A DNA stretch of 64,000 bases from Clostridiaceae bacterium (GTDB taxonomy: Bacteria > Bacillota > Clostridia > Saccharofermentanales > UBA5734), in the NCBI GenBank assembly GCA_034927345.1, contig JAYFQE010000002.1, positions 99,615 through 163,614 on the forward strand, written 5' to 3'. The notes below the pieces were generated by a model. That model searched no databases, was not told where the DNA came from, and worked only from the letters and a program-made list of their open reading frames with translations. Each line of letters opens with the position of its first letter. The stretch's first letter is position 1. This document shows, piece after piece, positions 37,768 to 59,906 of this stretch. The position numbers and the translations under genes were made by a program.

Positions 37768-37803
37768 AAAGATGACCAGGTGTCATGCGGGTAAGGAGCG
37801 AAG

Positions 37804-39618: not shown

Positions 39619-39621
39619 GAT

Positions 39622-40629
39622 ATGAACGACACAGATGACAGAAAACTGATAACCATCATGACGCCCTGCTATAATGAGGCGGAAAATGTTAAGCCTCTGT
39701 TCCAGAGCGTTGCCCGGATCATGGCGGAACAACTGCCGGAATACCGCTGGGAGCATCTCTTCATTGACAATTGTTCAACCGATCACACTGTGGACATCCT
39801 GAAGGGTATGGCTGCCGATGATCCTCGCATCAAGATTATTGTCAATGCCCGCAACTTCGGCCACATCCGCTCGCCCTATTATGGCTTGCTCCAGAGCCGC
39901 GGGGACGCGGTCATCAGTATGGCCGCAGATTTCCAGGAACCGCCGGATATGATTCCCCGATTTGTCCGGAAATGGGAAGAAGGGAACAAAGTCGTTGTCG
40001 CCGTAAAGAAGACATCCAAAGAAAACCGGATCCTCTACGGCATCCGTTCGCTCTATTACAAATTTGTCCGTTCGATTTCGGATGTCGAGCTGATCGACAA
40101 CTACACCGGGTTTGGCCTGTATGATCAGCGGATTATTGAGGAAATGCGTAAATTGGATGATCCCTATCCCTACATCCGGGGCCTGATCTGTGAAATCGGC
40201 TTCAAACATACTACAATCGAATTCGACCAGCCGAAACGGATTCGCGGCATTACGAAAAACAACTTCTACACCTTATATGACATGGCCATGCTGGGTATCA
40301 CCAGCCATTCAAAGCTGCCTTTGCGTCTGGCCACCATGGTGGGTTTTATCCTCTCCGCCCTGAGTCTTCTGGTGGCCGTGGTTTATTTGATTCTCAAGCT
40401 GGTTATGTGGCAGAACATGCCCATGGGAACGGCGCCGATCCTGATCGGCGTGTTTTTCTTCTCGGCCGTGCAGCTTTTTTTTATCGGCATTCTCGGCGAG
40501 TATATTCTGATCATTCTGACCCAGGTGCAGCATCGGCCTTTGGTCGTCGAAGCGGAACGCGTTAATTTTCCCCCGGATCATTCCACGGTACAGGATCCTG
40601 AAACGGAGCATTATCATGGTGACACGTGA
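39622..40629 (+). CDS. GT2 polyprenyl-phosphate glycosyltransferase (GtrB/ArnC type)
   Basis: N-terminal GT-A domain (ITIMTPCYNEAENV, FIDNCSTD, MAADFQEPP) plus two C-terminal TM helices (LATMVGFILSALSLLVAVVYLIL, APILIGVFFFSAVQLFFIGILGEY). Confidence 0.85.
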   Translation: MNDTDDRKLITIMTPCYNEAENVKPLFQSVARIMAEQLPEYRWEHLFIDNCSTDHTVDILKGMAADDPRIKIIVNARNFGHIRSPYYGLLQSRGDAVISMAADFQEPPDMIPRFVRKWEEGNKVVVAVKKTSKENRILYGIRSLYYKFVRSISDVELIDNYTGFGLYDQRIIEEMRKLDDPYPYIRGLICEIGFKHTTIEFDQPKRIRGITKNNFYTLYDMAMLGITSHSKLPLRLATMVGFILSALSLLVAVVYLILKLVMWQNMPMGTAPILIGVFFFSAVQLFFIGILGEYILIILTQVQHRPLVVEAERVNFPPDHSTVQDPETEHYHGDT

Positions 40630-41959
40630 ACAAATTCTGAATATGGTTGAACAGTATTATCATGAGCAAAACGAAGAGGCACACGTTTTCCAGCCGGGTG
40701 AACGCGTTAATTACGGCGGCAGATTCTACGACGCGTCGGAGATGCGCGCGCTTGTTGACGCGTCGCTGGATTTCTGGCTGACCAACGGCCGTTATGTCGC
40801 GCAGTTCGAAACATCGCTGGCCCGGTTTTTGGGCGTCAAGCATTGCCTGACGGTCAATTCCGGGTCCTCGGCCAATCTGCTGGCTTTCATGACCCTGACC
40901 TCGGCCAGGCTGGGCGCCCGGCAGATAAGGCCGGGCGACGAAGTGATCACTGTGGCCGCCGCCTTTCCGACAACCGTGGCGCCGATTATCCAATACGGCG
41001 CGATTCCGGTTTTTATCGATATCGGGCTGCCGTCCTATAACATCAATCCTGACCTGCTCGAACAAGCCTTTTCAACGAAAACAAAGGCCGTCATGGTTGC
41101 TCATACTTTGGGTAATCCGTTCAATATTGAGGCTGTCACGAAATTCTGCGCCCGGCATCAGCTGTGGCTGATCGAAGATAATTGCGACGCGTTAGGTTCG
41201 CAATACAGCCTGGACGGCCGGATCCGCTATACCGGAACTTTCGGCGACATCGGGACTTCCAGCTTTTATCCGCCGCATCATATAACCATGGGCGAAGGCG
41301 GAGCGGTTTACACCGAAAATGACGAGCTGCACCGGATCGCCCTGTCCTTAAGGGATTGGGGACGCGACTGCTGGTGCCCGTCCGGTAAAGACAATACCTG
41401 CCGGCATCGTTTTGACCGGCAATATGGTGAACTCCCTCTCGGATACGATCATAAATATGTTTATTCACATTTTGGCTATAATCTGAAAATAACCGAAATG
41501 CAGGCGGCAATCGGCTGCGAGCAATTGAAGAAATTGCCGCGGATCATCAAAGCCAGGCAAGAGAACTGGGCTTTCCTGCGTTCGGGGTTAGCCGGACACA
41601 AGGACGACCTGATCTTGCCGGAACCAGAACAGAACGCTATTCCCAGCTGGTTTGGCTTCTTGATGACTGTCCGCGATACGGCGGGCTTTACACGCGATGA
41701 ACTGGTCCAATGGCTGGAAAAGCACAATGTGCAGACCCGTATGCTCTTTGCCGGCAATCTGACCAAACACCCCTGTTTTGATCAGCTTAAAGCTGAACGG
41801 CGGGGTTTCCGGATCGTCGGTTCCTTAGAGCGTACGGATGAAGTGATGGCAAGCGCCTTCTGGATCGGCGTCTATCCGGGGATGGATGATGAGAAATTGG
41901 CTTATATGGCCAAACTGATCGATCAGTTTATCACTGAGCGCAAGGGGATGAAAACATGA
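40616..41959 (+). CDS. rfbH: CDP-6-deoxy-L-threo-D-glycero-4-hexulose-3-dehydrase (E1, RfbH/DdhC)
   Basis: DegT-fold protein with His-His (41276-41281, FYPPHHITMGEGG) where aminotransferases carry the Schiff-base Lys. Cys pattern C190...C252-x-C254-x7-C262 (DCWCPSGKDNTC, 41369-41401) matches the E1 [2Fe-2S] motif. Confidence 0.9.
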   Translation: MVTREQILNMVEQYYHEQNEEAHVFQPGERVNYGGRFYDASEMRALVDASLDFWLTNGRYVAQFETSLARFLGVKHCLTVNSGSSANLLAFMTLTSARLGARQIRPGDEVITVAAAFPTTVAPIIQYGAIPVFIDIGLPSYNINPDLLEQAFSTKTKAVMVAHTLGNPFNIEAVTKFCARHQLWLIEDNCDALGSQYSLDGRIRYTGTFGDIGTSSFYPPHHITMGEGGAVYTENDELHRIALSLRDWGRDCWCPSGKDNTCRHRFDRQYGELPLGYDHKYVYSHFGYNLKITEMQAAIGCEQLKKLPRIIKARQENWAFLRSGLAGHKDDLILPEPEQNAIPSWFGFLMTVRDTAGFTRDELVQWLEKHNVQTRMLFAGNLTKHPCFDQLKAERRGFRIVGSLERTDEVMASAFWIGVYPGMDDEKLAYMAKLIDQFITERKGMKT

Positions 41960-42729
41960 AGACAGTCATTCTGGCCGGCGGGTTCGGCACACGGATCAGC
42001 GAGGAATCGCATTTGAAGCCTAAACCGATGGTAGAAATCGGCGACAATCCCATCCTTTGGCATATCATGAAAATATACTCGTCCTATGGTTTTAATGATT
42101 TCATCATTTGCTGCGGATATAAGGGCTTTGTCATTAAATCGTATTTTGCCGATTACTATCTGCATATGTCGGATATTACTTTCGATTTTTCCAGAGAAAA
42201 CAAGATGGAGATCCATAGCAATGTCGCCGAACCCTGGCGGGTCACACTGGTTGATACCGGATTGAAAACCATGACCGGCGGCCGCATCAAACGCATCCAA
42301 TCCTATATCGGAGACGAACCGTTTTTCTTGACTTATGGCGACGGTGTGGCCGACGTCGATATACCGGCTTTGCTTGAACAACACCGGCTGAGCCGGAAAA
42401 CTGTTACGCTGACCGCTGTTCAGCCGGACGGACGCTTCGGGGCTCTGGATATCGATGAGGATCATTCAGTTCGTAGTTTTATAGAAAAACCGCGCGGCGA
42501 CAGCGCCTGGATCAACGGCGGATTCATGGTGATGAATCCAGATGTTTTTAGTTATATCAAGGGCGACAACACAATATTTGAACAGGAATCCCTGAGACAG
42601 TTGGCTATCGACCAAAAACTCGGCGCTTACGAACATAAAGGCTTCTGGATGCCGATGGATACCATGCGGGATAAAAATCGTCTGGACGAATTGTGGAATA
42701 CAGGGAAAGCACCCTGGAAAAGGTGGTAA
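41956..42729 (+). CDS. rfbF: glucose-1-phosphate cytidylyltransferase
   Basis: MKTVILAGGFGTRISEES N-terminus. 257 aa. Overlaps the rfbH stop (ATGA). Confidence 0.92.
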   Translation: MKTVILAGGFGTRISEESHLKPKPMVEIGDNPILWHIMKIYSSYGFNDFIICCGYKGFVIKSYFADYYLHMSDITFDFSRENKMEIHSNVAEPWRVTLVDTGLKTMTGGRIKRIQSYIGDEPFFLTYGDGVADVDIPALLEQHRLSRKTVTLTAVQPDGRFGALDIDEDHSVRSFIEKPRGDSAWINGGFMVMNPDVFSYIKGDNTIFEQESLRQLAIDQKLGAYEHKGFWMPMDTMRDKNRLDELWNTGKAPWKRW

Positions 42730-42731
42730 TC

Positions 42732-43838
42732 ATGTCGTCATTTACGGATGTTGATCCGGCATTCTGGTCTGGAAAATCAGTTTTCCTGACCGGCGAATCC
42801 GGCTTTAAAGGTTCCTGGCTGTCCCTTTGGCTCAGCAGTCTGGGCGCCGGGGTGACCGGGTATGCGCTGGAACCGCCGACTGTGCCGTCGCTGTACGCGC
42901 TGGCCCGCGTGGACCGGCTGGTCGATTCTGTTCGGGGCGACATCCGGGATGAAGCCAGGCTGATCCGGAGCATGCAGCAGGCCGCTCCGGAGATCGTTGT
43001 GCACATGGCGGCCCAACCCCTGGTCCGCCGGTCATATGCCGATCCGGCCGGGACTTATGAAACCAATGTCATGGGAACCGTTCATGTTCTCGAAGCCGTC
43101 CGGCAGACACCTTCCGTTCGGGCGGTTGTCATCATCACAACCGACAAGTGTTATGAAAATAAAGAATGGGTCTGGAGCTACCGTGAAGATGAGCCGATGG
43201 GCGGTTATGATCCCTATTCCAGCAGCAAAGGCTGCGCTGAACTCGTTGTTTCCGCTTACCGGCGTTCCTTTTTCAATCCGGCAGATTATCAGAAACACGG
43301 GGTTGCCATCGCAACCGCCCGGGCCGGCAATGTCATCGGCGGCGGGGATTGGGCGCAGGATCGTCTGGTGCCGGATATCATCCGTTCACTCGAACAGGGG
43401 CAAGCCGTGGAGATCCGCAATCCTCATGCCACGCGGCCCTGGCAATTTGTCCTCGAGCCCCTGAGCGGATACTTGATCCTGGCGCAAAAGCTTTACTTGA
43501 ATGGTCCGGAATATAGCGGAGGCTGGAATTTCGGTCCGCGTGATGAAGACGCCCGGGAAGTTCTGACGATCGTCAGGGAGTTATGCCGTTTATGGGGCGG
43601 TAAGGCTTCTTACTTTTTATCACAGGGCGACCATCCGCATGAAGCTTCTTATTTGAAACTCGATATCTCCAAAGCGGCCATAAAACTGGGTTGGAAACCG
43701 GCATGGCATCTGGACGAGACTTTGGCGGCTATCGTCGCCTGGCAGCGCGGTTACAATGCCGGCGCAGATATGCAGGAAATCTGTCTGAATCAAATCTGCC
43801 AATATCAGAAAGCACGAGAGAACATGCAACATGACTGA
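42732..43838 (+). CDS. rfbG: CDP-glucose 4,6-dehydratase
   Basis: VFLTGESGFKGSWLSLWL Rossmann motif and the YSSSKGCAE catalytic YxxxK. AAAAGGTGG RBS before the ATG at 42732. Confidence 0.92.
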   Translation: MSSFTDVDPAFWSGKSVFLTGESGFKGSWLSLWLSSLGAGVTGYALEPPTVPSLYALARVDRLVDSVRGDIRDEARLIRSMQQAAPEIVVHMAAQPLVRRSYADPAGTYETNVMGTVHVLEAVRQTPSVRAVVIITTDKCYENKEWVWSYREDEPMGGYDPYSSSKGCAELVVSAYRRSFFNPADYQKHGVAIATARAGNVIGGGDWAQDRLVPDIIRSLEQGQAVEIRNPHATRPWQFVLEPLSGYLILAQKLYLNGPEYSGGWNFGPRDEDAREVLTIVRELCRLWGGKASYFLSQGDHPHEASYLKLDISKAAIKLGWKPAWHLDETLAAIVAWQRGYNAGADMQEICLNQICQYQKARENMQHD

Positions 43839-44280
43839 GCGAATTCAAAACAGCCGCATTTATCAGACCCTGACCGGGAAATTCCCCTGGATGGCCCAAT
43901 TCATTCGTTTCGGCTTTGTCGGTGTCAGCAATACTTTGATCGGCCTGGCCGTTTACTACTTGCTGGCCGGATTATTCTCCATGGACATCCAATTATCCAA
44001 TGCGATTTCCTTCGTCGTCAGCGTATTGAACGCTTATATCTGGAATACCGTCTGGGTTTTTAAAAAGCAACAGGACCCTTCCCGAAAGAGCATCCGTACG
44101 CCGCTTAAGTTCTTCATATCATATGGCACAACTTATTTATTAAGCGCGGTTTTACTGTGGCTCTGGACCGATGTTTTAGGTATCAGCAAATTTCTGGCTC
44201 CGCTTATTTCGCTTCTGATAACGGTGCCGGTTAATTTTTTGCTGAATAAATTCTGGACTTTTAAAGCGGTGAGGAACTAA
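43831..44280 (+). CDS. GtrA family membrane protein (putative lipid-linked sugar translocase)
   Basis: 149 aa with 4 TM helices. FIRFGFVGVSNTLIGLAVYY and the C-terminal NFLLNKFWTFK are GtrA hallmarks. Confidence 0.8.
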   Translation: MTERIQNSRIYQTLTGKFPWMAQFIRFGFVGVSNTLIGLAVYYLLAGLFSMDIQLSNAISFVVSVLNAYIWNTVWVFKKQQDPSRKSIRTPLKFFISYGTTYLLSAVLLWLWTDVLGISKFLAPLISLLITVPVNFLLNKFWTFKAVRN

Positions 44281-44282
44281 GC

Positions 44283-45815
44283 ATGGTGAGAATTCGCATA
44301 GATTTAATCAAAGTATTTTCCTATATGGCGCTCACAATTCCGGTTATCATCTTTATCGCCGGCTGGCTGAAACTGGTGATTGCCATTCCTGCTATCCTGG
44401 TGATCCTGGTCGCCTTTTATGCTGTGGCGCAGGACATCATCAAACAAAATGCCGCGAGTCTTAACGATAATATCCTGATCATCAGCAGAAAAAGCCTTGC
44501 ATTTATCATTGTCACGATTCTGATCTGGTGCTGGTTAGGCGGACAGGGGGGATTTTTCTACCAAACTGACGATTACAATTGCCGAAATGCCATCTTCCGC
44601 GACCTGATCAATTTAGATTGGCCTGTCGTGTACAGCAGCACTCAGGCATCGCTGGTATATTATATTGCCTATTGGCTGGTACCCGCTCTATTTGGCAAAG
44701 TTTTCGGTCTCCTGTTCGGCGCCGGCCCAGCCTGGTTGTTTGCCAATATCATGATGTTGATCTGGTCTTGTAGTCTGGTTTTTTTCATCACCATCCTTTT
44801 GCTGTTTTATGTCAAAGCGCAGTCTTTTCGCAGAATATTCTTATCCATGCTGGTATTGGTTTTTTTTAGCGGCATGGATATCATTGGCGTCCTGCTTTAT
44901 AACAACATCAATTTTTCCAGCCTGCCCGGACATCTGGAATGGTGGTCCGGCATTTATCAATATAGCGCCAATACGACTCAGTTGTTTTGGGTTTTTAATC
45001 AATCGATACCGGCTTGGCTTGGTGTTGTCCTGCTCCTGAATGAAAAGACTGTTAAAAATTACGCTTATCTGGGATTTACATTGCTGGCCTTTTCGCCGCT
45101 GCCTTTTGTGGGTTTCGTGCCGTTTTTTATCATTTTGGCAGCGCGCTGCCTGACTAAAGCTATCCAGGAACACCGGCTCGAACGTTTCATCCGGCAAATT
45201 CTCAGCGTACAAAACATTGCCGCATTTCTGGTTATTCTGCCGTTGTATTACCTTTATTATAAGAGCAATATATCCGTAACCAATAATGGATTTCGATTTG
45301 ATATCGGTATCAGTAAATATGGGTTTGACTGGAGTATCGTGCGGTTGATTCTTTTTTATCTTCTGGAATTCGGCATCCTTGCGGCTATTCTCTATAACAA
45401 CCAACACAAGAGTGTTTTTTACGGAATATCTGTTTTCTCACTCTGTCTGACCGGCCTCTTCCGGATCGGAGGCGGGTACGATTTTACAATGCGGGCATCG
45501 ATTCCAGCACTGATGGTTCTGATGATCCTGGCTTTGCAGGAACTGCTCGCCGGTATCCGGATTGAAAAGAGCGGCAGGCAGCAATGGTTGTGCCTGAACA
45601 AGACCGTTCTGTCTTTAATCATCATTTTAATCCTCGGCACTTGTACGCCTGTTATCCAGTTTGCCAAAGGCTTCCACCAGGTTCTGGACAATAATAAAAT
45701 TGCATTGGTTGCCGATAATGTTGGAACCTTCGCCAATAAGCCGATCGATCAATACAGAAATTTTTTAGCTGCCAATTATACTCAAACTCTTTTCTTTAAA
45801 TATCTGGCCAAATAG
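44283..45815 (+). CDS. polytopic membrane protein, candidate GT-C-type glycosyltransferase (GtrC-like role; Wzy-like alternative)
   Basis: 510 aa with at least 10 hydrophobic helices. An acidic DD pair lies in the first predicted outer loop (FFYQTDDYNCRN). Sits directly after GtrA. Visibly lower GC than the preceding genes. Confidence 0.55.
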   Translation: MVRIRIDLIKVFSYMALTIPVIIFIAGWLKLVIAIPAILVILVAFYAVAQDIIKQNAASLNDNILIISRKSLAFIIVTILIWCWLGGQGGFFYQTDDYNCRNAIFRDLINLDWPVVYSSTQASLVYYIAYWLVPALFGKVFGLLFGAGPAWLFANIMMLIWSCSLVFFITILLLFYVKAQSFRRIFLSMLVLVFFSGMDIIGVLLYNNINFSSLPGHLEWWSGIYQYSANTTQLFWVFNQSIPAWLGVVLLLNEKTVKNYAYLGFTLLAFSPLPFVGFVPFFIILAARCLTKAIQEHRLERFIRQILSVQNIAAFLVILPLYYLYYKSNISVTNNGFRFDIGISKYGFDWSIVRLILFYLLEFGILAAILYNNQHKSVFYGISVFSLCLTGLFRIGGGYDFTMRASIPALMVLMILALQELLAGIRIEKSGRQQWLCLNKTVLSLIIILILGTCTPVIQFAKGFHQVLDNNKIALVADNVGTFANKPIDQYRNFLAANYTQTLFFKYLAK

Positions 45816-45825
45816 GTTTGATTGA

Positions 45826-45854
45826 TTGACACACAATATATGAAAGCTTATAAT
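45826..45854 (+). promoter_or_regulatory. perfect-consensus sigma-A promoter for the M-box leader
   Basis: TTGACA (45826-45831), 17-nt spacer, TATAAT (45849-45854). Confidence 0.65.
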
Positions 45855-45879
45855 CAATTTGCTGCAGAAACCATCTGCT

Positions 45880-46050
45880 ACCCATTGTTAGGTGAGGCTT
45901 CTGTGTGAATAAATGCTGCTACCCGGAAACGTCGAGAGACGCCAATGGGTTAACAGGTTTTGCCGGATTAAGGCTTAATCTAATGCAGCTGGAGCGGTGC
46001 GAGCCGAAGCCAAAGTCACACAGTGCCAAAGCTCAATCAGGACGGGTTGG
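45880..46050 (+). promoter_or_regulatory. M-box (ykoK leader) Mg2+ riboswitch aptamer
   Basis: Strong match to conserved M-box segments: GTTAGGTGAGGCTTCTGTG, GCTGCTACCC, GAGAGACGCCAATGGGTTAACAG, TAATGCAGCTGGAG, CACAGTGCCAAAGCTCAATCAGG. corA lies downstream. Confidence 0.88.
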
Positions 46051-46096
46051 CCGCGATATTGGCCCAGGCTGATATTATGAACCCTGCTGATATGAG

Positions 46097-46127
46097 CCCG
46101 CCGGGATATGGGATCCGACGGGTTTTT
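46097..46127 (+). terminator. candidate riboswitch expression-platform terminator
   Basis: Imperfect stem CCCGCCGGG / CCGACGGG (one mismatch) followed by TTTTT, located between the aptamer and the corA RBS. Confidence 0.5.
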
Positions 46128-46191
46128 CTACGTTAGTAAGCCGGCTGAGCCTGCAGTTATAATGCGCCGGTTCGAGAGAGGAGGGTTGGTC

Positions 46192-47169
46192 ATGCTTGAA
46201 ATATTCAACACGCGCATGAAAGAAATCAATGGACGGATGGTGAGTGAACTTGAACGATTGGACCAGATCGTCCCGGAATGCTGGATCAATCTCTCGTCTC
46301 CCACCGAAGACGAACTGCTGCAAGTTGAAGAAGCGCTCACTCTGCCGCCGGAATTCCTCCGCTATCCTTTGGACGAAGAAGAACGTCCGCGTATCGATAT
46401 AGACGATGAGACGGATCACCTCCTGATCATCGCCGACTTCCCGTATCTGCGCCGTGAAGGCACTTATACAAAATACGAAACCCAGCCGGTCGGCATCGTC
46501 CTGGCTAATAAATGTCTGGTTACCGTGTCCCTGCGTGAATCCAGCGTCCTCGAACCCTTTAAAAATAACCGGGTGCGCGACTTCGTCACCGGTTTTCGGA
46601 CCCGTTTCATTTATCAGATCATGTACGCCGGCGCCAAAGAATACTTGAAACTGCTGCGTTTTATGGATAAAACCATTGATGCTGCCGAGCACCAGCTTAA
46701 CAAGTCGATCAATAATAAGGAACTGTTTAAACTGATGGAACTCGGTAAATCACTGATTTACTTTTCCACCTCTCTGAAATCCAACGAATCAGTCCTGGAA
46801 AAGATGATGCGCGGCAAGTTTTTAAAGCAATATGAGGAAGACCGCGATCTCCTGGAAGATGTCATCATCGAATACAAACAGGCTCTGGAAATGGCCAACA
46901 TCTATGCTTCGATCATCAACGGCACGATGGACGCCTACGCTTCGATCATTTCCAACAATTTAAATATGGTTATGAAATTCATGGCGGCGATGACCATCGT
47001 CCTGGCTGTTCCGCAGGTCATAGCCAGCTTTTTCGGACAGAATATCGCTTTTCCATTTAATGGCGCCGATTTTGCCGCCGCGCCGTGGCCATTTATTTTT
47101 ACCCTGGTTATCAGCGTTGTCGCTACGGCGCTGACCGTCTGGTGGCTTAACAAGAAGGATATGTTTTGA
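46192..47169 (+). CDS. corA: CorA-family divalent cation transporter (GQN variant of the GMN motif)
   Basis: Cytoplasmic CorA domain plus two C-terminal TM helices. The signature reads FFGQNIAFPF (GQN at 47035-47043). GAGAGGAGGG RBS before the ATG at 46192. M-box upstream. Confidence 0.85.
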   Translation: MLEIFNTRMKEINGRMVSELERLDQIVPECWINLSSPTEDELLQVEEALTLPPEFLRYPLDEEERPRIDIDDETDHLLIIADFPYLRREGTYTKYETQPVGIVLANKCLVTVSLRESSVLEPFKNNRVRDFVTGFRTRFIYQIMYAGAKEYLKLLRFMDKTIDAAEHQLNKSINNKELFKLMELGKSLIYFSTSLKSNESVLEKMMRGKFLKQYEEDRDLLEDVIIEYKQALEMANIYASIINGTMDAYASIISNNLNMVMKFMAAMTIVLAVPQVIASFFGQNIAFPFNGADFAAAPWPFIFTLVISVVATALTVWWLNKKDMF

Positions 47170-47183
47170 AACCGCTGGCCGGT

Positions 47184-48419
47184 ATGAAAAATTTTGTCTG
47201 GATCAGTCTGGGTAGCGCATCCAACACCCTGACATCCTTATTTTTCCTGATGATTGTCACGCGCACGCTGGGTGTCAATGATGCCGGCATTTTTGCGATT
47301 GCTTTCACGACGGCGCAGATTTTACTGACCGTCGGCCTCTATGGGATCAGAAATTATCAGGTAACCGACTTGAAAGACCAGTTTTCATCTGGCATTTATA
47401 TCGCTTTACGGGTCATGACTTCCGTAATGATGGTTGTGATCGGCTTGATTTTTTGTATTTTAAGCCGTTACGACCTTCTTAAGAGCCAGATCGTACTTAT
47501 ACTCATCCTGTATAAAATGTCTGAGGCCATATCAGACGTTTATTACGGTATATTACAAAAAAAGAACAAGCTCTATATCGTCGGATTTTCCATGACCCTG
47601 CGATCTGTTCTCTCATTGATCTTTTTTTTCATTTATCTGGCATATGTGCCGCAAGCCAACTTGCTGACCGCTTGCCTGGGTTTAATGGTCACCGGATATT
47701 TGCCGATCATCCTGGTTGACATACCCTGTGCCGGCAGGATAGAAAAAACAAGGCCAGTTTTTGATAAAACAGAAATCGGCCGTTTGTTAAGCCTTTGTTT
47801 CCCGATCTTTGTGGTTTCTTTCCTGTCCATTATCGTCGTCAATATACCGAAATATATCATCGACAGCAGCTTATCGGAAGAAGTTCAGACAATCTATAAT
47901 ATCATTGTCATGCCGGGAACATCTATAGCTTTATTCAGCCAGATTATCGTTCAATCGCTTCTGGTGAGAATGGCGGAGAGCATCAATCGGCAAAGCAAAA
48001 CAGATTTCAAAAAACTAATCGGCAGCATTCTTTTGCTCGTTGTATTATTTACCGCCTTGTTTACTGTGTTTTGTGGTTTTTATGGCGAAACGCTGCTTTA
48101 CTTTTTATATAAAATCGATGTCGCGGCATATATTCCATATTTAATCGTCATTGTTGCCGGCGCGATGTTCAGCAGTATCGCCAATGTTTTTTCCGTCGTA
48201 CTGACAGCATTAAGAAAAATGAATATACAGATGTATGTTTATCTGATCTGTCTGGCGTTATCTTTTCCGATTTGTTGGCTGCTCATTCCTCAGTACAGCA
48301 TAGCGGGAGCATCGATATCGTATTTGCTGATCATGTTCATCCAATTTGCGCTTTGTTCGGCGGCATGCTATACCTTATATAGAAAAATGATCAAGAACAG
48401 CGGAGAACCGGTATCATGA
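47184..48419 (+). CDS. Wzx-type (MOP superfamily) polysaccharide/oligosaccharide flippase
   Basis: About 410 aa and about 12 TM helices, in a glycan-locus context. The start is either TTG 47166 (overlapping the corA stop) or ATG 47184. Confidence 0.75.
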   Translation: MKNFVWISLGSASNTLTSLFFLMIVTRTLGVNDAGIFAIAFTTAQILLTVGLYGIRNYQVTDLKDQFSSGIYIALRVMTSVMMVVIGLIFCILSRYDLLKSQIVLILILYKMSEAISDVYYGILQKKNKLYIVGFSMTLRSVLSLIFFFIYLAYVPQANLLTACLGLMVTGYLPIILVDIPCAGRIEKTRPVFDKTEIGRLLSLCFPIFVVSFLSIIVVNIPKYIIDSSLSEEVQTIYNIIVMPGTSIALFSQIIVQSLLVRMAESINRQSKTDFKKLIGSILLLVVLFTALFTVFCGFYGETLLYFLYKIDVAAYIPYLIVIVAGAMFSSIANVFSVVLTALRKMNIQMYVYLICLALSFPICWLLIPQYSIAGASISYLLIMFIQFALCSAACYTLYRKMIKNSGEPVS

Positions 48420-49399
48420 AAGTATCGATTATCATACCCGTTTATAATGCTGAAAGAACATTAAGGCGCTGCTTGGACAGCATTTTAAAACAGACCTATA
48501 AAGACTATGAAATTATCATCATCAATGATGGATCAACTGATCAATCCTGGGCAATCATGCAGAATTACGCTGGAAAATTTCCAGAAGCCATCCGCATATG
48601 GAACCAGGAGAATATGGGAGCAGCGGCTGCCCGAAACAACGGAATCGACATGTCAGGCGGGGAGTATATTATATTCATCGATAATGATGATTATATACCT
48701 GCCGACTATGTTCAGTGCTTTGTACAAAAAGCTGAATCAACGCAATCCGATATGGTTGTGGGCAATTATTGCCGGATCAGAGAAAACGGGAAAGTGATTT
48801 ATACCCGTAAAGCTCATGCATCCGAATGGGTTATCTTCCAATTGCAAGCTCCCTGGGCGAGAATTTACCGGAAGAGCTTTCTCGTTGACCATAAAATTCG
48901 ATTTCTGGCTTCACCGATCGGCGAGGATGTTTATTTCAATATCGTTGCTGCCTGCGTATGCCAATCATGGGCCTGTGCATCGACCAATTACTATTGGGTT
49001 GACAATTCGCAATCTGTTTCCAACACAAAGCAAAAGGGCATGAAGACGTTTTGTTCACCGCTTTACATGTTGGATTGCCTGTATAACAGAATAAAGAATG
49101 AAAAAATATCCCCTGAGAAACAGGACTACTGCGAATACTTTTTTATTCGCTATCTGGTCTGGCATATCCTGTTCAGCGGTAAACAGTCAGATTGGCAAAC
49201 TGCTTACTCTGTCTATACCGATGAAATACGATTCTTATCCGATCGGTATCCAGGATTCCAAAAGAATAAAAATATTAGTTTGTTCAAGCCTAAGGGCGAA
49301 ACCTGGTTTAATCGGATTACTGTTCTCGTTTTTATGCTCTTGCATCGTTTTCACGGGATCAAGCTATTGCTGAAAATATACTGCAAAGAAAAAATGTGA
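48416..49399 (+). CDS. family 2 glycosyltransferase
   Basis: VSIIIPVYNAERTL, INDGSTDQS and FIDNDDY (DxD) motifs. Overlaps the flippase stop. Confidence 0.85.
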   Translation: MKVSIIIPVYNAERTLRRCLDSILKQTYKDYEIIIINDGSTDQSWAIMQNYAGKFPEAIRIWNQENMGAAAARNNGIDMSGGEYIIFIDNDDYIPADYVQCFVQKAESTQSDMVVGNYCRIRENGKVIYTRKAHASEWVIFQLQAPWARIYRKSFLVDHKIRFLASPIGEDVYFNIVAACVCQSWACASTNYYWVDNSQSVSNTKQKGMKTFCSPLYMLDCLYNRIKNEKISPEKQDYCEYFFIRYLVWHILFSGKQSDWQTAYSVYTDEIRFLSDRYPGFQKNKNISLFKPKGETWFNRITVLVFMLLHRFHGIKLLLKIYCKEKM

Positions 49400-49416
49400 A
49401 GTGCAGGTAAATCGAT

Positions 49417-50202
49417 ATGGCAGATCATAGTTATGTTATCCTTGTTTACAAGCAGTCGGAGTTTCTGGAAGCTTGCCTTGAATCATTAATCCATCAGTCG
49501 GAACCAAGTCCAATTATTTTATCGACATCGACGCCTTCGGAATGGCTGGATAAGATTGCGCGGCGCTATCATGTGCCGATCAGGGTAAGAACGGGCAAAA
49601 GCGCCATAGCCGATGATTGGAATTTTGCCTTAAAGCAGGCCGATACACCTTATGTGACCTTAGCGCATCAGGATGATGTTTATCAACCCGGATTCGGCGC
49701 TGCAATCAAGCATGATTTGTATCGATATCCAGACACGTTGATCCATTTTACCAATTATGCCGAATGGATAGACGGCAAAGTCCGGACCAATAATGCCAAT
49801 TTAATCATCAAACGGATTTTGTTATTTCCTTATTATATAAAACGATCTATCAGATCAAAGCGCATGAGGAAACTGTGTCTGTCTGTCGGAAATCCTGTCT
49901 CCTGTCCGACAGTGACCTATCATAGGGATCGGTTGCAGGATTTTCAATTCAATCAAGACTACACCATAAATTTGGATTGGGATGCCTGGATCCGTCTGGC
50001 AGAGAAGGAAGGGCGTTTCATTTATCATAAACCGGTTCTTGTCTGGCATCGCCTGTATCGGGCTTCTGAAACATCTTCCGGACTACAGGAAAACAGGCGG
50101 CAAGAAGATGACAGACGGATTTTTCAACGCTTATGGCCGAAGTCAATCGCTTCGCTTCTGATTTATTTTTATCGGTTAAGTTACCGTTCCAATGAAAAAT
50201 AG
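49417..50202 (+). CDS. family 2 glycosyltransferase (divergent)
   Basis: YVILVYKQSEFLEACLESL and LAHQDDVY (DxD-like). 261 aa. Confidence 0.7.
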   Translation: MADHSYVILVYKQSEFLEACLESLIHQSEPSPIILSTSTPSEWLDKIARRYHVPIRVRTGKSAIADDWNFALKQADTPYVTLAHQDDVYQPGFGAAIKHDLYRYPDTLIHFTNYAEWIDGKVRTNNANLIIKRILLFPYYIKRSIRSKRMRKLCLSVGNPVSCPTVTYHRDRLQDFQFNQDYTINLDWDAWIRLAEKEGRFIYHKPVLVWHRLYRASETSSGLQENRRQEDDRRIFQRLWPKSIASLLIYFYRLSYRSNEK

Positions 50203-50237
50203 TGGACACGAAAAAGGATGATTGAAAGGATCCATAC

Positions 50238-50945
50238 ATGAGCATCAGTGCAATTCTCTTAGCAAAAAATGAAGCCGAAAACTTGAAAATTCTCTTGCCC
50301 AGACTGATAAGTGCGTTAAACAAGACAAACGCCGCTTACGAAGTGATTGTCGTTGATTCCATGACGCCGACTGATAATACTCCGTCAATCTGCTCCCAAT
50401 ATGATCATGTCAGGTATATCAATCAGACATCACCCGGTTATGCCGGCGCATTCCGAACCGGAATAGAGGCAGCCGGGATGGATTGTTTATTAAATCTGGA
50501 TGCCGACGGATCACATAATCCAGACGCCATACCGGATCTATACGAGAAATACCGTGAAGGTTATGACCTGGTCATTGGTTCGCGTTATTGCCAGGGCGGA
50601 AAAACCAACGATTCACGAATGTCGATTATTATGTCCAAGATTCTGAATTTTGTCATGAGAATAATTATCGGTGTGAAGGCAAAGGACATATCGACAAGTT
50701 TTCGCATTTATAATATGGCACAAATTAAAGCCGTCAAACTGACCTGTACGAATTATGAAGTCTTGCAGGAAGTAATTCTTCGCATGAGAATGAACAAACG
50801 CCATTTGACAATAGGCGAGGTCCCGATTATTTTCGAAAAAAGGATTTATGGTCAATCAAAACGCCGGTTGATGCGCTTTATCGCGTCTTATATAAGCGTT
50901 CTATTCCGGTTTACGAAAATTCGTCTTGGTCATCAACACGATTGA
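50238..50945 (+). CDS. GT2, dolichyl/polyprenyl-phosphate sugar synthase-like (DPM1-like, no TM segment)
   Basis: ISAILLAKNEAENL, VVDSMTPTDNT, LNLDADGSH and DLVIGSRY, as in polyprenol-monophosphate hexose synthases. Confidence 0.75.
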   Translation: MSISAILLAKNEAENLKILLPRLISALNKTNAAYEVIVVDSMTPTDNTPSICSQYDHVRYINQTSPGYAGAFRTGIEAAGMDCLLNLDADGSHNPDAIPDLYEKYREGYDLVIGSRYCQGGKTNDSRMSIIMSKILNFVMRIIIGVKAKDISTSFRIYNMAQIKAVKLTCTNYEVLQEVILRMRMNKRHLTIGEVPIIFEKRIYGQSKRRLMRFIASYISVLFRFTKIRLGHQHD

Positions 50946-50979: not shown

Positions 50980-51960
50980 CTATATATGGCTGCGCCAGTA
51001 ATCCAATGTATCTTGAAGCGACTGTTCAAGGGAAATCGTCGGCTGCCAGGCAGTATCCTTTTGTATTTTAGAAATATCCGCTCGGATCTCGGGTATTTCG
51101 ATTGGCCGCAATTTCGCCGGATCGACGACAACCTGAATCCTGGTTTTCGAAAATGATAATAACTGGTCAAGGATAGCTTGAATCATGACAGATATCCCGG
51201 AACCAATATTATAAACTTCGCCGGGATGGCCGGACAAAAGTAACTGATAATAGCCGCGAACGATGTCCCGCACATCCGTAAAATCCCTTCGGGCGGATAA
51301 ATCGCCAACCTTCATGATTGGTTCTGCCTGATTAGTTTCGATAAGAGCGATCTGGTGTGCAAAATCTGATACAACGAATATCGGCAGCTGGCCTGGGCCG
51401 ATATGATTAAAGGCTCTGACCATGATGATGGGCGCCTGATAACTCCGGACATGGATTCTGGCCATAGCTTCGGCAGCTGCTTTTGATACAGCATAGGGAC
51501 TTACCGGCTCAGAGCTCGCAGATTCACGAATCGGCAGTTGGTCAGATATGACACGACCATATTGTTCAGAAGATCCGACGAGCAGAAGCTTACAAAGCGG
51601 GCAAACATCCCGTATAGCCTCCATGACATGGATGGAACCGATCAGGTTAATCTGCATGGTCAGGTCCGGCTTGGCAAATGATAATCCAACCGAACTCTGA
51701 GCAGCCAAAAGCACTAAGTAATCCGGCATAATTTGGCGGAACAACGACTTGGTTTCCATAGCGGACGTTATATCAAGATCATAAACATCAACATGTCGAA
51801 ACTCATCAGCGTCAATGATTTCTCCCGTTAATTTTGTAGCCGATATAGCCAGATGCGGCATCGAAGACAGAAAGCGTAATAAGTGCTTACCGACAAAACC
51901 GGCAGCTCCGACAACCAGGATCTTTTTAGCAACACAAATCTCTTGATTGATCATATTCAT
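50980..51960 (-). CDS. rmd: GDP-4-dehydro-6-deoxy-D-mannose reductase (Rmd-like; GDP-D-rhamnose or GDP-6-deoxy-D-talose forming)
   Basis: GFVGKHL, QINLIGS, PYAVSKAAAE, RAFNHIGPGQ, SARRDFTDVRD and VYNIGSG closely track Pseudomonas Rmd. Located directly downstream of gmd. Confidence 0.8.
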   Translation of the reverse strand: MNMINQEICVAKKILVVGAAGFVGKHLLRFLSSMPHLAISATKLTGEIIDADEFRHVDVYDLDITSAMETKSLFRQIMPDYLVLLAAQSSVGLSFAKPDLTMQINLIGSIHVMEAIRDVCPLCKLLLVGSSEQYGRVISDQLPIRESASSEPVSPYAVSKAAAEAMARIHVRSYQAPIIMVRAFNHIGPGQLPIFVVSDFAHQIALIETNQAEPIMKVGDLSARRDFTDVRDIVRGYYQLLLSGHPGEVYNIGSGISVMIQAILDQLLSFSKTRIQVVVDPAKLRPIEIPEIRADISKIQKDTAWQPTISLEQSLQDTLDYWRSHI

Positions 51961-51962
51961 GT

Positions 51963-52952
<990 letters not shown>

Positions 52953-52988
52953 TTAGCGGTTTTTCTGTACAACAGGATAATACTGAAC

Positions 52989-54077
52989 CTACAGTAAATC
53001 CTCGCGATCAACCTGTTTCAATTCATCGACAAGCTTTTTAACCTCTTGTGCACGATCCTTCTGGCAGATCAAGAGGGCGTCGCCCGAGTCCACGATAATC
53101 AAATCTTTTATACCCAGAGTGGAAATTAACCGAGTCGGCGAAACGCTGCTGATGATGCAGTTTTGCGTGTCGATGCCCAGATGCTGGGCATGAATAACAT
53201 TATTATCATCGTCGGGCGTAAAAATTTCACTGAGTGAATCCCAGCTGCCGACATCATTCCAACCAAATTCAGCGGGTATGACGTGAGCTTTTTGTATCCT
53301 TTCCAGAATCCCGTAATCAATGGAAACGGCGGTCAGATCGCCATATATCGATTGTATTGCATCCGATTCCTGATTTGTTCGCAGTTGCTGGTAAATTTGT
53401 GTCATTTTTTGGTATAAATCGGGCAGATAGGTTTGGAAAGCTTGTAGTATAACAGATGATTTGCCTAAAAACATGCCACTGTTCCACAGATAACGGCCTG
53501 AACGAACATATTCCTGAGCCAGAACCTTTTCCGGCTTTTCGACGAATCTTTGGATGCGATAGATGCCGGATGTTTTTTCCATATCAGTCGGTTCGGCAAA
53601 ACGGATGTAGCCGTAGCCTGTGTTGGGCTGCGTCGGCCATAAACCGACGGTTATGATCTCGTCGTACTGCTCCGCAGCATGAAAAGCGAGATTCATGATC
53701 TGTTCGTATTCAACAGTATCGGTTATATGATGATCAGAAGGCAATACGCTAATGACGACATCATCGCCATATAGCTTCTGGATGACCAGTGTGGAATACA
53801 AGATACACGGCGCTGTATTTCGTCCTGCCGGTTCAATCAGAATATGGGTGCGGTCGATATCGGGCAGCACCTTCTCATACATCAGATCCTGTTGCGTATG
53901 ATTGGTGATAATAAATAAATCTTCCATCGCAATGATGTTCTTCACCCGATTGATGGTTTCGTTAATCATTAACTGATCGCTAGTCAAAGAAATTAACTGC
54001 TTGGGTCTTGCCAATCTTGATATGGGCCAGAAACGCGTACCACCACCGCCGGCCATGATCACGCCAACTCTTTTCAT
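52989..54077 (-). CDS. manC: mannose-1-phosphate guanylyltransferase (no PMI domain)
   Basis: GVIMAGGGGTRFWPISR nucleotidyltransferase loop. About 360 aa. AGGAGGAAG RBS before the ATG at 54077. Confidence 0.88.
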   Translation of the reverse strand: MKRVGVIMAGGGGTRFWPISRLARPKQLISLTSDQLMINETINRVKNIIAMEDLFIITNHTQQDLMYEKVLPDIDRTHILIEPAGRNTAPCILYSTLVIQKLYGDDVVISVLPSDHHITDTVEYEQIMNLAFHAAEQYDEIITVGLWPTQPNTGYGYIRFAEPTDMEKTSGIYRIQRFVEKPEKVLAQEYVRSGRYLWNSGMFLGKSSVILQAFQTYLPDLYQKMTQIYQQLRTNQESDAIQSIYGDLTAVSIDYGILERIQKAHVIPAEFGWNDVGSWDSLSEIFTPDDDNNVIHAQHLGIDTQNCIISSVSPTRLISTLGIKDLIIVDSGDALLICQKDRAQEVKKLVDELKQVDREDLL

Positions 54078-54105
54078 AGCTTCCTCCTGAATAAATCCCA
54101 AGCCA

Positions 54106-55542
54106 TTATACGGCTTTTAGAAAATAAATAATCAAGGTAGGAATAATATAGATATAAATCAATCCCAGATTACCCCAGATCAAACGGTGATCAAAATCCG
54201 ATTCCGGTTGATCGTTTCCGGCTGGCAGAGAAGGAGCCGGCTTGAATAGATAGGCAAAGCTCAAACCGCAGCCAATAAGCAGCGTATTGTAAACACTGAC
54301 CGGCAATTTCAGTTTATCCAGTAAAGAAGCATAAGTCACACTGTCCGGTGACAAATATTTGCCCGTTAACAATGGAAGAATACCATTGTTAATCATAGCC
54401 TGATCAACATTTTTATAGAAAACCATATATGTTTCGATCAGAAAAAAAGCGAACATGAAATACTGAAGATAGACTGACAACTTAAACTCGGAAAACATGA
54501 ACGTATTAATGACCAGGAAAGGTACAAGGATAATCATCCATTGCGGATGCCAATGAATAGACAAGATCAGGGCTGCATTGACGAGAAATGAAAGATAATA
54601 GCTATAGGGTGTAACAATCAGCGGGTCTTTCTTTTGTCTGTAAGCAAAAACACATACGAAAACCATAACGATGCCCAATAAAAAAACCGGGCCAACCTGG
54701 AGATTGACGCCATAATTATAAATTCGTTTCATGAAGCCATATGTATCATGAATATAGTTCTTCGAGAGGCTGCAGTATGGATCATTCAAGAACAACAGAC
54801 GTTCCAGGATCATACACCAGGATGATATCAGCAAGTATTTGATAATATGAAGGACTCTCTTTTCAATCAACAAAATCAACGGAATCAGAATGAAAAGCAT
54901 GTAAGCCTTGAAGGTTATCGCTAAACCAAACATAATGACAAATTTGTAATATTTCTTCTTATAAAAAAAATATATGCCGCATAAAGCCAAAAAGACACAG
55001 ATGATGTCAAATTGTCCGAAAACAACGACAGTAAATAAAGTTATCGGGGATGACATGAAAAAGAACGACATCCACTTTGACCGGTTCTTCATTAATCCAA
55101 GCTGTCTGCCAATTTTATAGATCATAAGGACTGACAAGACTAAAAACACAAGAATTAAAAGTTTTGACCAAAACAAATAGACGGATAGAGGTGGGAAAAA
55201 GATGAATTTGCTGATTATTTTAATCGGTAAATTCCATAGGGCGATCAAACCATAAAGAAAAAAGGAGTAAGAAGCAACATTCAAATCTACAGCTATACCG
55301 GGAGCATAATAAGCAGATTGATGTGCCAAATTATAGACATACTCATAATAATGAAAAAACTTACCTTCATGAATTGCACCATAAAGACTCAAGGATTGTT
55401 GAACGGTGATGGACAGATCGTAAAATTGATTAAAGAATAAAAAACAAATCACAATTGTGATGCCCAAAAAAAACCATTCAACCAAAGATACAGGTCGGTC
55501 ATTTCGTTTAATATGATTACGTGAATTATTGAACATGCTCAT
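54106..55542 (-). CDS. polytopic membrane protein, candidate GT-C-type glycosyltransferase
   Basis: 478 aa with more than 10 helices. Very AT-rich coding sequence (about 30-40 % GC in sampled lines). Overlaps the upstream GtrA-like gene by 17 nt. Confidence 0.55.
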   Translation of the reverse strand: MSMFNNSRNHIKRNDRPVSLVEWFFLGITIVICFLFFNQFYDLSITVQQSLSLYGAIHEGKFFHYYEYVYNLAHQSAYYAPGIAVDLNVASYSFFLYGLIALWNLPIKIISKFIFFPPLSVYLFWSKLLILVFLVLSVLMIYKIGRQLGLMKNRSKWMSFFFMSSPITLFTVVVFGQFDIICVFLALCGIYFFYKKKYYKFVIMFGLAITFKAYMLFILIPLILLIEKRVLHIIKYLLISSWCMILERLLFLNDPYCSLSKNYIHDTYGFMKRIYNYGVNLQVGPVFLLGIVMVFVCVFAYRQKKDPLIVTPYSYYLSFLVNAALILSIHWHPQWMIILVPFLVINTFMFSEFKLSVYLQYFMFAFFLIETYMVFYKNVDQAMINNGILPLLTGKYLSPDSVTYASLLDKLKLPVSVYNTLLIGCGLSFAYLFKPAPSLPAGNDQPESDFDHRLIWGNLGLIYIYIIPTLIIYFLKAV

Positions 55543-56041
55543 GCTCTTTTCTCTTCCCGCGAAAGGAGAAATATTTACTTAAGAAAAAATTAATGGGAGT
55601 AACCAAAATAACGCTGAGCACCGGAGCAAACTTCTCCGGTACTGAAAAGGCTTCAACCCATAAAATATTTAATAGATTAGTTAAAATGTAGGACGTAAAA
55701 ATATAGGAAGCAAAAAAACGAAGAATGGATCCCTTTACCGCATTGGCGGCTTCCCGTTTAAATACCCATAAACGATTCAAAAAGTAAGAACTCAAAACGC
55801 TGATGATAAAGCCTATTGTTCCGGCGATAACATAATCCCATCGGAAAAAGAAAGACACAATTGCCTGATTTGAATGATATCCAGAAGGATAAAGCCTGAA
55901 AATTTCTAAAACAATAGAATAAATAGACCATGAGACAGCAAAATTGACAACACCGACAAGACCAAAACGGATAAATTGAAATACTTTTTTATATAAAGTG
56001 CTGGAAGCAATACTGTGGACTAAACTAATCATAGGTTCCAT
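55526..56041 (-). CDS. GtrA family membrane protein
   Basis: FIRFGLVGVVNFAVSWSIY and the C-terminal NFFLSKYFSF are GtrA hallmarks, with 4 helices. The start is ambiguous (56041 or 56032). Confidence 0.75.
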   Translation of the reverse strand: MEPMISLVHSIASSTLYKKVFQFIRFGLVGVVNFAVSWSIYSIVLEIFRLYPSGYHSNQAIVSFFFRWDYVIAGTIGFIISVLSSYFLNRLWVFKREAANAVKGSILRFFASYIFTSYILTNLLNILWVEAFSVPEKFAPVLSVILVTPINFFLSKYFSFRGKRKEHEHVQ

Positions 56042-56053
56042 CAACCCTCGCAA

Positions 56054-58241: not shown

Positions 58242-58286
58242 ATGGACGAATCGATTATAATGCATCCGTTAATGGAAGGTGAGTAA

Positions 58287-58853: not shown

Positions 58854-58859
58854 GCAGAT

Positions 58860-59879: not shown

Positions 59880-59906
59880 TTAGTAAACAGGCGGTGAAGG
59901 TTGAAT

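Follow-up and report, generated by a model that had tools for sequence, protein, structure and literature searches.

Does a Mg2+ riboswitch that stands before a cation channel gene also govern the surface-glycan genes that follow it? The question is raised by a 64,000-nucleotide (nt) stretch of DNA from the metagenome-assembled genome of an uncultured Clostridiaceae bacterium of the Saccharofermentanales (GenBank assembly GCA_034927345.1, contig JAYFQE010000002.1, forward strand, positions 99,615 to 163,614; hereafter the window, in whose own numbering all positions are given), in which an M-box, a type of riboswitch treated as a marker of Mg2+ transporters, precedes corA, and corA runs into the genes of a Wzx-type flippase and of three GT2 glycosyltransferases (GT2a, GT2b and GT2c). 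An earlier note, made from the letters alone, had proposed that the expression of the flippase and the glycosyltransferases may be tied to Mg2+ limitation. The explanation that we favour, and hold to be reasonably probable, is that of an M-box attenuator extended to wzx and the three GT2 genes, a derived arrangement. Judging from the sequence and its relatives, the riboswitch and corA are ordinary. Their probable extension into the glycan genes convinces by its structure and is matched more loosely in sister species; in its details it is unique, and in evolution labile.

Promoter, aptamer and terminator ahead of corA

The leader of corA consists of three elements:

45826 to 45854, + strand: sigma-70/SigA-type promoter, TTGACA-17-TATAAT (12/12 consensus match)
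45877 to 46050, + strand: M-box (ykoK-type) Mg2+ riboswitch aptamer, RF00380 (Rfam covariance model)
46094 to 46127, + strand: intrinsic terminator of the expression platform, a hairpin at 46094-46125 with a U-run (UUUUU) at 46123-46127 (folding, -14.4 kcal/mol)

All three had been pointed out in the earlier note, with the aptamer placed at 45880-46050 and the hairpin with its T-run at 46097-46127, and all three hold. The consensus scan for promoters accepted sites with at least 4/6 matches per hexamer and at least 9/12 in total, alternative sigma factors being outside its scope. The promoter, which ends 23 nt 5' of the aptamer, is the sole 12/12 match in 43.5-52.5 kb, and by an arithmetic estimate about 0.02 such matches would be expected by chance in 64 kb. 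Relatives were drawn from a comparison set of about 90 related loci, namely 80 species-level loci with CorA orthologues of 52-84% identity, nearly all of them from metagenome-assembled genomes labelled Saccharofermentans, Saccharofermentanales, Mageeibacillus or Oscillospiraceae, and nine metagenome contigs with a closer CorA. Wherever the scan of a relative reached the equivalent position, in L003, L005, L092, L093 and L094, a 12/12 promoter was present there. The aptamer, checked against RF00380, reaches 141.0 bits (gathering score 44, E=8.4e-32) over model positions 1-169 of 169 and is the single Rfam match across the window; orthologous aptamers score 134-147 bits (Rfam, nine related loci).

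The terminator was overlooked by the scanning tool because its loop has 8 nt and its stem a mismatch, and it was found by folding. A hairpin followed by a U-run lies at the equivalent place in all seven close relatives tested (-16.6 to -24.9 kcal/mol). A common fold of eight terminator segments, for which the ungapped alignment had put the 3' arms out of register, yielded no structure. The octamer GACGGGUU occurs twice, in the 3' strand of the aptamer's P1 helix (46041-46048) and in the 3' arm of the terminator (46118-46125), a repeat to be expected if these two strands compete for the terminator's 5' arm (46097-46102).

Taken together, the predicted elements argue that the leader is a real OFF switch of the terminator type, that is, an attenuator, before a CorA-family gene, and corA is very likely under Mg2+ control. 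The M-box of Bacillus subtilis switches transcription OFF when Mg2+ is high, and the majority of M-boxes use an intrinsic terminator (PMC12810186; PMC4072509). In the mechanism that we propose, transcription would start at the consensus promoter (45826-45854). With sufficient Mg2+ in the cytoplasm, the aptamer would fold and P1 close, leaving the terminator (46094-46127) free to form and to stop transcription before corA. At low Mg2+, the P1 3' strand with GACGGGUU would compete for the 5' arm of the terminator, and RNA polymerase would read on into corA.

From corA into the glycan genes

Five genes follow the leader:

46192 to 47169, + strand: corA, cation channel of the CorA family (two transmembrane segments, GxN type), 325 residues (Pfam PF01544)
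47166 to 48419, + strand: wzx-like flippase of the MOP family, 417 residues, its TTG start overlapping the corA stop in TTGA (Pfam Polysacc_synt)
48416 to 49399, + strand: GT2 glycosyltransferase a, 327 residues, 4-nt overlap with the wzx stop (Pfam Glycos_transf_2, 134.8 bits)
49417 to 50202, + strand: GT2 glycosyltransferase b, 261 residues (Pfam, 31.5 bits)
50238 to 50945, + strand: GT2 glycosyltransferase c, 235 residues (Pfam, 96.6 bits)

The position of corA agrees with the one given in the earlier note. Its product matches PF01544 with 176 bits (cut-off 27) over residues 30-321, and its ATG (46192), preceded by GGAGG at 46180-46184, lies 142 nt 3' of the aptamer end, an arrangement that recurs in more than 25 orthologous loci. 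The flippase has at least nine strong hydrophobic segments and matches Polysacc_synt (PF01943) with 37.9 bits (cut-off 28.2), its MurJ match of 23.7 bits lying under the cut-off of that model. For the flippase start, two options had been left in the earlier note, TTG at 47166 and ATG at 47184. In the open reading frame no start codon precedes TTG 47166, which overlaps the corA stop codon TGA (47167-47169) and has a Shine-Dalgarno sequence, AAGGA (47155-47159), inside corA, 6 nt upstream. Ahead of the internal ATG the frame encodes KPLAG, with which homologues align their KPISE, KPATE and KPVSA, and the gene call of NCBI for the identical protein has 417 residues. Since N-terminal alignment and gene call agree, the TTG start is favoured, and the corA-wzx junction is thus -4 nt. 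The TTGA overlap suggests that translation of wzx is coupled to that of corA, as we infer from the arrangement.

Among the glycosyltransferases, GT2a has NCBIfam matches of the EpsD, TuaG and EpsE kind, all under their cut-offs. GT2b is the orthologue (51-52% identity) of the GT2 gene directly after wzx in two unrelated loci, L081 and L084, so that the wzx-GT2b adjacency is conserved elsewhere. GT2c is similar to synthases of polyprenyl-phosphate sugars (AglJ, DPM, ArnC and GacI type); its NCBIfam matches (AglJ, dolichyl-phosphate hexose transferase, ArnC; E=1e-16 to 1e-19) are all under the cut-offs.

The junctions of corA-wzx-GT2a-GT2b-GT2c measure -4, -4, +17 and +35 nt, all on the same strand, which upholds the spacing of the three GT2 genes stated in the earlier note. 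The consensus scan found no terminator-like site in any of these junctions, and no + strand promoter match meeting the scan criteria in 45855-47253. The best match inside corA has 8/12, and matches of 9-10/12 lie inside wzx and GT2a. The gene after GT2c (fcl-like, 50980-51966) is convergent. By its sequence, the stretch from corA to GT2c is organised with the anatomy of a single operon.

Since the wzx start lies in the corA stop, with neither a terminator nor a recognisable promoter between the genes, a messenger that has passed the leader most likely spans all five genes. The transcript extended at low Mg2+ would then carry corA, wzx and GT2a to GT2c, and flippase and glycosyltransferases would be induced together with the channel when Mg2+ is scarce. 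That the glycan genes are co-transcribed with corA, and hence repressed by Mg2+, appears to us rather probable, though evolutionarily the arrangement is labile. Of the proposal that flippase and glycosyltransferase expression is tied to Mg2+ limitation, the part that stands is the operon anatomy and the lack of a good internal promoter; it is weakened by a junction found in one genome and by sister lineages that insulate their glycan genes from corA.

Ancestry of the leader and the genes behind corA

Orthologues of this CorA, 52-87% identical, were found in more than 80 loci. An M-box lies upstream of corA in most orthologues of at least 66% identity (nhmmer; Rfam in nine loci), and none was found at orthologues of 64% identity or less, two of which (L034 and L038) were checked with Rfam; among the closer loci, L007, L013 and L029 gave no M-box with Rfam. 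By synteny, the ancestral order is ZapA, U32 peptidase, dUTPase, then promoter, M-box, terminator and corA, followed by a convergent alpha/beta-hydrolase gene, bacA and tsaD. In the loci L032-L080, whose CorA orthologues of at most 63% identity lack an M-box, the alpha/beta-hydrolase gene and tsaD are co-directional 3' of corA, in many cases overlapping by 4 nt; in lineages that do have an M-box, this hydrolase gene is turned round and faces corA convergently. The unit of promoter, M-box, terminator and corA is, by this comparison of sequences, an old, ordinary and usually monocistronic attenuator.

In four relatives (L022, L041, L015 and L025), a full-length M-box aptamer ends 4-11 nt 5' of the corA start; in L022 the aptamer covers 152-317 and the ATG lies at 322, in L041 the respective positions are 9834-9997 and 10001. 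A terminator has no room there, so that the ribosome-binding site must be within the 3' strand of the aptamer, and these leaders look like purely translational M-box platforms. The case of Mycobacterium tuberculosis has been termed the first translational Mbox described (2026 paper).

Synteny of the window with its relatives stops exactly at the corA stop codon, and counterparts of the relatives' downstream genes are absent from the window. In a CorA tree (neighbour-joining, no bootstrap), a single clade takes in every lineage that has polysaccharide genes 3' of corA, namely the window, L092, L093, L001, L002/L094, L003 and L005. L004 lies within it, its contig ending too early to tell, and the hydrolase-flanked lineages lie outside. 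Apart from L092 and L002/L094, which are taken up below, the arrangements behind corA are as follows:

L003: Bac_transf priming transferase gene, +13 nt after corA; no promoter match from the M-box promoter to the end of Bac_transf
L005: Bac_transf, +29 nt after corA; only two 9/12 promoter matches, both inside corA
L093: cps-like locus, +126-133 nt past corA (by gene call); gap free of promoter and terminator matches
L001: glycan genes that converge on corA; linkage not applicable
L087 (frameshifted contig): NusG-like fragment and helix-turn-helix gene, then Bac_transf, after corA

The cps-like locus of L093 holds Bac_transf, CpsB, CapD, LCP, Wzz, CpsD and a NusG paralogue. In L003, L005 and, probably, L093, corA runs on into a priming transferase gene with neither promoter nor terminator separating the two. 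In L003, Bac_transf is followed by an 11/12 promoter and a cyclic di-GMP-I riboswitch that open a flagellar operon. The Bac_transf proteins of L003 and L005 are 52-56% identical to those preceding Wzx homologues elsewhere.

We suggest that an ancestor of this one Saccharofermentanales CorA clade acquired a polysaccharide locus headed by Bac_transf 3' of corA once, and that the locus then diversified. In the lineage of the window, the priming-transferase gene ahead of wzx would be gone and wzx butted onto corA, and a second glycan block of 9 kb would have been inserted just 5' of the riboswitch promoter. The M-box does lie inside a glycan locus, as had been claimed, but M-box and corA are ancestral to that setting and normally monocistronic, the glycan genes having come with lineage-specific insertions on both sides.

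Some further features of these loci may be recorded. The cyclic di-GMP-I riboswitches (RF01051, 68-73 bits) lie at 12534-12619 in L003 and at 15079-15163 in L005, before a flgB-fliF-fliG flagellar operon. In L005, a gene for a PAS-GGDEF-HD-GYP protein stands between the corA-Bac_transf pair and the riboswitch with its flagellar operon. The NusG paralogues in polysaccharide loci beside corA (L087, 10828-11067; L093, 18412-18885) hint, by analogy, at processive antitermination of these glycan operons of the LoaP/UpxY type.

Transcripts entering from upstream

The riboswitch promoter is itself preceded by co-directional glycan genes:

36883 to 45815, + strand: eight co-directional glycan genes, a lineage-specific insertion between the dUTPase gene and the riboswitch promoter (synteny)

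The block of about 9 kb encodes an epimerase, a thiamine pyrophosphate enzyme, an ArnC/PgfS-like GT2, a DegT aminotransferase, a nucleotidyltransferase (of the nucleoside triphosphate transferase kind), a dehydratase, GtrA and a 510-residue protein. It begins 15 nt after the dUTPase stop (36867), and the genes for U32 peptidase and dUTPase lie at 33.4-36.87 kb, the M-box promoter at 45.83 kb. The stop codon of the 510-residue protein gene (45815) lies 10 nt from the -35 hexamer, and the consensus scan found no terminator-like site on the + strand in 45400-45880. Because of this short gap and the lack of a terminator in it, transcription may read in from the upstream genes.

The M-box might consequently act as an internal gate of a longer unit, ending upstream transcripts at high Mg2+ and extending them through corA, wzx and the GT2 genes at low Mg2+, and it would then divide one glycan directon of 14 kb in two, one half constitutive and the other conditional on Mg2+. 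Besides the short distances at both ends of the block and the terminator-free approach to the promoter, read-in may even be ancestral, since the dUTPase gene runs straight into the promoter in L001, where its reading frame ends inside the -35 hexamer, and in L003, where its stop codon lies 15 nt 5' of the -35. Against a main role for such transcripts, the riboswitch's own perfect and conserved promoter argues that most of them start there, and the folding of the aptamer within a long read-through transcript is plausible only. We regard both the gating and the splitting of the directon as possible but rather unlikely; they would in any case supplement the extended attenuator and not replace it.

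Points against the extension

Several results weigh against an attenuator that reaches into the glycan genes. The corA-wzx junction is absent from all 80 species-level loci (tblastn with 16 window proteins) and from every additional metagenome contig, and among 5.8 billion proteins, leaving aside the entry of the window itself, no Wzx exceeds 56% identity. As a singleton, the junction does not allow selection for the coupling to be demonstrated. As far as public data go, it is, from its sequence context, best described as a unique product of local rearrangement. The nearest Wzx homologue (56% identical) is preceded by Bac_transf instead of corA, and the homologues in L081, L084 and L085 form a module Bac_transf-wzx-GT2-GT2-DUF2304, with neither corA nor an M-box beside wzx in these three contexts. 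In the window, no Bac_transf priming transferase was found by tblastn in 64 kb, which places the initiation of the glycan pathway outside the unit. A Bac_transf gene deleted from between corA and wzx was considered and rejected, there being no room for it, and tblastn showing no remnant of one in the whole window.

In two sister lineages, the glycan gene behind corA has signals of its own:

L002/L094: CapD-like gene after corA; TTGAAT-16-TGnTATAAT directly after the corA stop
L092: CapD-like gene after corA; terminator-like hairpin, then a 12/12 promoter

Sister lineages thus differ, fused in some and with an own promoter in others, and the coupling of corA to glycan genes is labile and not a fixed design. 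The guanine-plus-cytosine (GC) content is 49% over corA (46-47 kb), 44% at 47-48 kb and 41-42% at 48-51 kb, a fall compatible with a recent, possibly neutral juxtaposition. Within the leader, the terminator stem of the window (-14.4 kcal/mol) is the weakest of the clade, and thermodynamic folding (constrained minimum free energy) gave no clean two-state alternative of antiterminator and terminator, the P1 strands being drawn instead into rival long-range pairings with 46079-46112. A laxer promoter scan, run beside the consensus scan, lists TTGCCG-16-TATTTT (8/12) at 47072 inside corA and TTGTCA-17-AATGAT (9/12) at 47254 inside wzx. A further candidate between terminator and corA, TAGTAA-18-TATAAT at 46134-46163 (9/12, with 3/6 in the -35), would, if active, keep the whole unit expressed at a basal level independent of Mg2+; its TATAAT (46158-46163) was rejected as a promoter bypassing the riboswitch, as the best -35 has 3/6 matches and the leaders of relatives lack the motif, and it is kept as a caveat only.

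The module to which wzx belongs elsewhere is itself interrupted in the window:

50980 to 56053, - strand: convergent low-GC block of fcl, gmd, manC, a 478-residue membrane protein gene and GtrA (Pfam and context)
56229 to 56951, + strand: GacI-like GT2 (orthology to the GT2 of the wzx module)
56948 to 57328, + strand: GacJ-like DUF2304 gene (orthology to the DUF2304 gene of the wzx module)

The last two are the orthologues, 70% and 54% identical, of the second GT2 and the DUF2304 protein of that module. Elsewhere the GacI-like GT2 and DUF2304 genes directly follow wzx-GT2; here they lie 5 kb further on, behind the convergent block (GC 34-46%), which suggests that the wzx-GT2-GacI-like-DUF2304 module was split by the insertion of a GDP-fucose side-chain cassette.

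These results could be accommodated by a merely accidental neighbourhood, in which the M-box meaningfully controls corA only, and wzx and the GT2 genes run mainly from an unrecognised internal promoter, in corA or for another sigma factor, with any Mg2+ dependence as minor noise. The uniqueness of the junction, the GC drop at the corA-wzx boundary, the independent promoters of sister lineages (with or without a terminator before them), the weak promoter-like sites at 47072 and 47254, and the notorious mosaicism of glycan loci, of which the split module is an example, would all fit. Such an accident does not explain, however, why the wzx start overlaps the corA stop with AAGGA inside corA, the anatomy of translational coupling, nor why tight fusions of corA to a glycan gene occur in two or three other lineages, and no promoter match of at least 9/12 lies within corA to drive the genes behind it. 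On balance, we consider this account unlikely and retain the extended attenuator. A selected physiological role for a coupling of Mg2+ to glycan assembly is a separate matter, and one which we hold to be doubtful.

The CorA-like channel and its cation

The CorA of the window has two C-terminal transmembrane segments (residues 263-281 and 301-319). Its closest solved relative is the CorA of Methanocaldococcus jannaschii (E=6e-23), whose GMN motif aligns with GQN. This GQN (residues 282-284, window 47035-47043) replaces the CorA-typical GMN at the end of the first transmembrane segment, and in 28 aligned orthologues G282 and N284 are invariant and Q283 nearly so. The protein stays below the cut-off of the CorA equivalog TIGR00383 (107.7 vs 200.75) and has a weak ZntB match. 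Judged by these features, it is a family member of the GxN type and not a canonical CorA. Our literature search for CorA with 'GMN motif' and 'GQN' found nothing on a GQN variant. The M-box upstream suggests that the GQN protein still handles Mg2+. That switch and channel concern another cation, linking the glycan genes to a different metal, would suit the near-invariant GQN and the low TIGR00383 and ZntB scores, but is very improbable given a canonical, full-length and high-scoring RF00380 aptamer and the reported Mg2+ response of M-boxes, which have served to mark atypical transporters as Mg2+-specific (PMC4072509).

The surrounding glycan locus

Beyond the split module, the window holds rmlA, rmlC, rmlB and rmlD (57357-60755) and an ABC-2 permease gene (63106-63879). 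The logic of the upstream block (36883-45815) is arn-like, leading from an amino sugar to a polyprenyl-phosphate carrier, flipping and transfer, and no terminator precedes the M-box. The insertion site of this block corresponds to the spacer between dUTPase gene and promoter, which is short in relatives (15 nt in L003). Its GT2 (39622-40629) matches the ArnC model with E=6e-33, and GT2c does so with E=1.5e-16, both under the cut-off.

Two membrane proteins of the locus, the one of 510 residues (44283-45815, + strand, about 11 transmembrane segments) and the one of 478 residues (54106-55542, - strand, about 7 transmembrane segments), are each encoded next to a GtrA gene on its 3' side. Neither has a significant Pfam family, and the 478-residue protein has one weak NCBIfam match, 'cell surface glycopolymer formation protein'. 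Both are candidate transferases of the GT-C type, of a yet unmodelled family.

What a Mg2+-responsive glycan operon would mean

Should the read-through be real, an anaerobic Firmicute would adjust the assembly of its surface glycans to cytoplasmic Mg2+ by means of a cis-acting RNA, and the link between low Mg2+ and envelope remodelling known from Gram-negatives would extend to Gram-positives by a different mechanism. If it is not, the locus holds one more M-box/corA attenuator beside a mosaic glycan locus. A wider reading, which we offer as tentative, takes the M-box-corA leader as the Mg2+-sensing entry point of the surface polysaccharide locus in one Saccharofermentans-like clade: low Mg2+ would turn on, together with the channel, the priming transferase (L003, L005, L093) or, in the window, Wzx and three GT2 glycosyltransferases, and a cation-binding wall glycopolymer would be remodelled. 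It would then be the first M-box regulon known with glycan-assembly genes, and an RNA-based Gram-positive counterpart of the PhoPQ-driven modification of lipopolysaccharide. The clade offers a natural experiment in this respect, as the same riboswitch-corA unit is fused to glycan genes in some sister species and insulated from them in others. A search of the literature found no paper combining 'M-box riboswitch' and 'glycosyltransferase'.

Comparison with known systems

The ykoK/mgtE M-box of B. subtilis belongs to the same RF00380 aptamer family and shows the same order of promoter, aptamer, intrinsic terminator and Mg2+ transporter, and its logic as an OFF switch at high Mg2+ (PMC12810186, PMC4072509) would be the same here. 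The two differ in the first gene, which here encodes a GQN CorA-family channel and not MgtE, and in the unit, which here runs unbroken into a flippase and three glycosyltransferases. M-boxes are said to stand 'almost always' 5' of corA, mgtE or mgtA alone (PMC4072509).

In its gene families, the glycan part resembles the GacI/GacJ/GacK/GacL modules of rhamnose-rich wall polysaccharides: a Wzx-type flippase (GacK-like), a small GT2 of the kind producing polyprenyl-phosphate sugar (GacI-like) and a DUF2304 protein (GacJ-like) are present, the likeness being one of gene family. In the wider locus, rmlACBD and the ABC-2 permease add to it. In contrast to Gac modules, the GacI/GacJ-like pair (56229-57328) is parted from wzx by the convergent GDP-fucose block. 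To our knowledge, no riboswitch is known in loci of the GacI/J/K/L type. The roles of GacI, GacJ and GacL have been described (bioRxiv 10.1101/180810).

As a precedent for an M-box placed before genes other than those of transporters, the pe20 operon of M. tuberculosis (PE20-PPE31-PPE32-PPE33-Rv1810-MgtC) comes closest; there, an Mbox also heads a multigene operon, some of whose genes are associated with the cell envelope and which is induced at low Mg2+ (PMC12810186). The pe20 Mbox has a translational platform with Rho-dependent termination and controls an upstream open reading frame (PMC12810186), whereas an intrinsic terminator is predicted here. The pe20 operon is conserved across its genus, unlike the singleton corA-wzx junction, and the cargo here consists of glycan-assembly genes.

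The physiological parallel is found in enterobacteria, where PhoPQ senses low Mg2+ and activates the arn operon (PMC12748115). Remodelling of lipopolysaccharide through PhoPQ(/PmrAB) and arn follows the same logic that we propose, from sequence, for the window, in which low Mg2+ leads to the decoration of a surface glycolipid or glycopolymer with sugars carried on polyprenyl phosphate. The regulators are not homologous: PhoPQ is a two-component protein sensor of periplasmic cations in Gram-negatives, whereas in this member of the class Clostridia a cis-acting RNA would read the Mg2+ of the cytoplasm.

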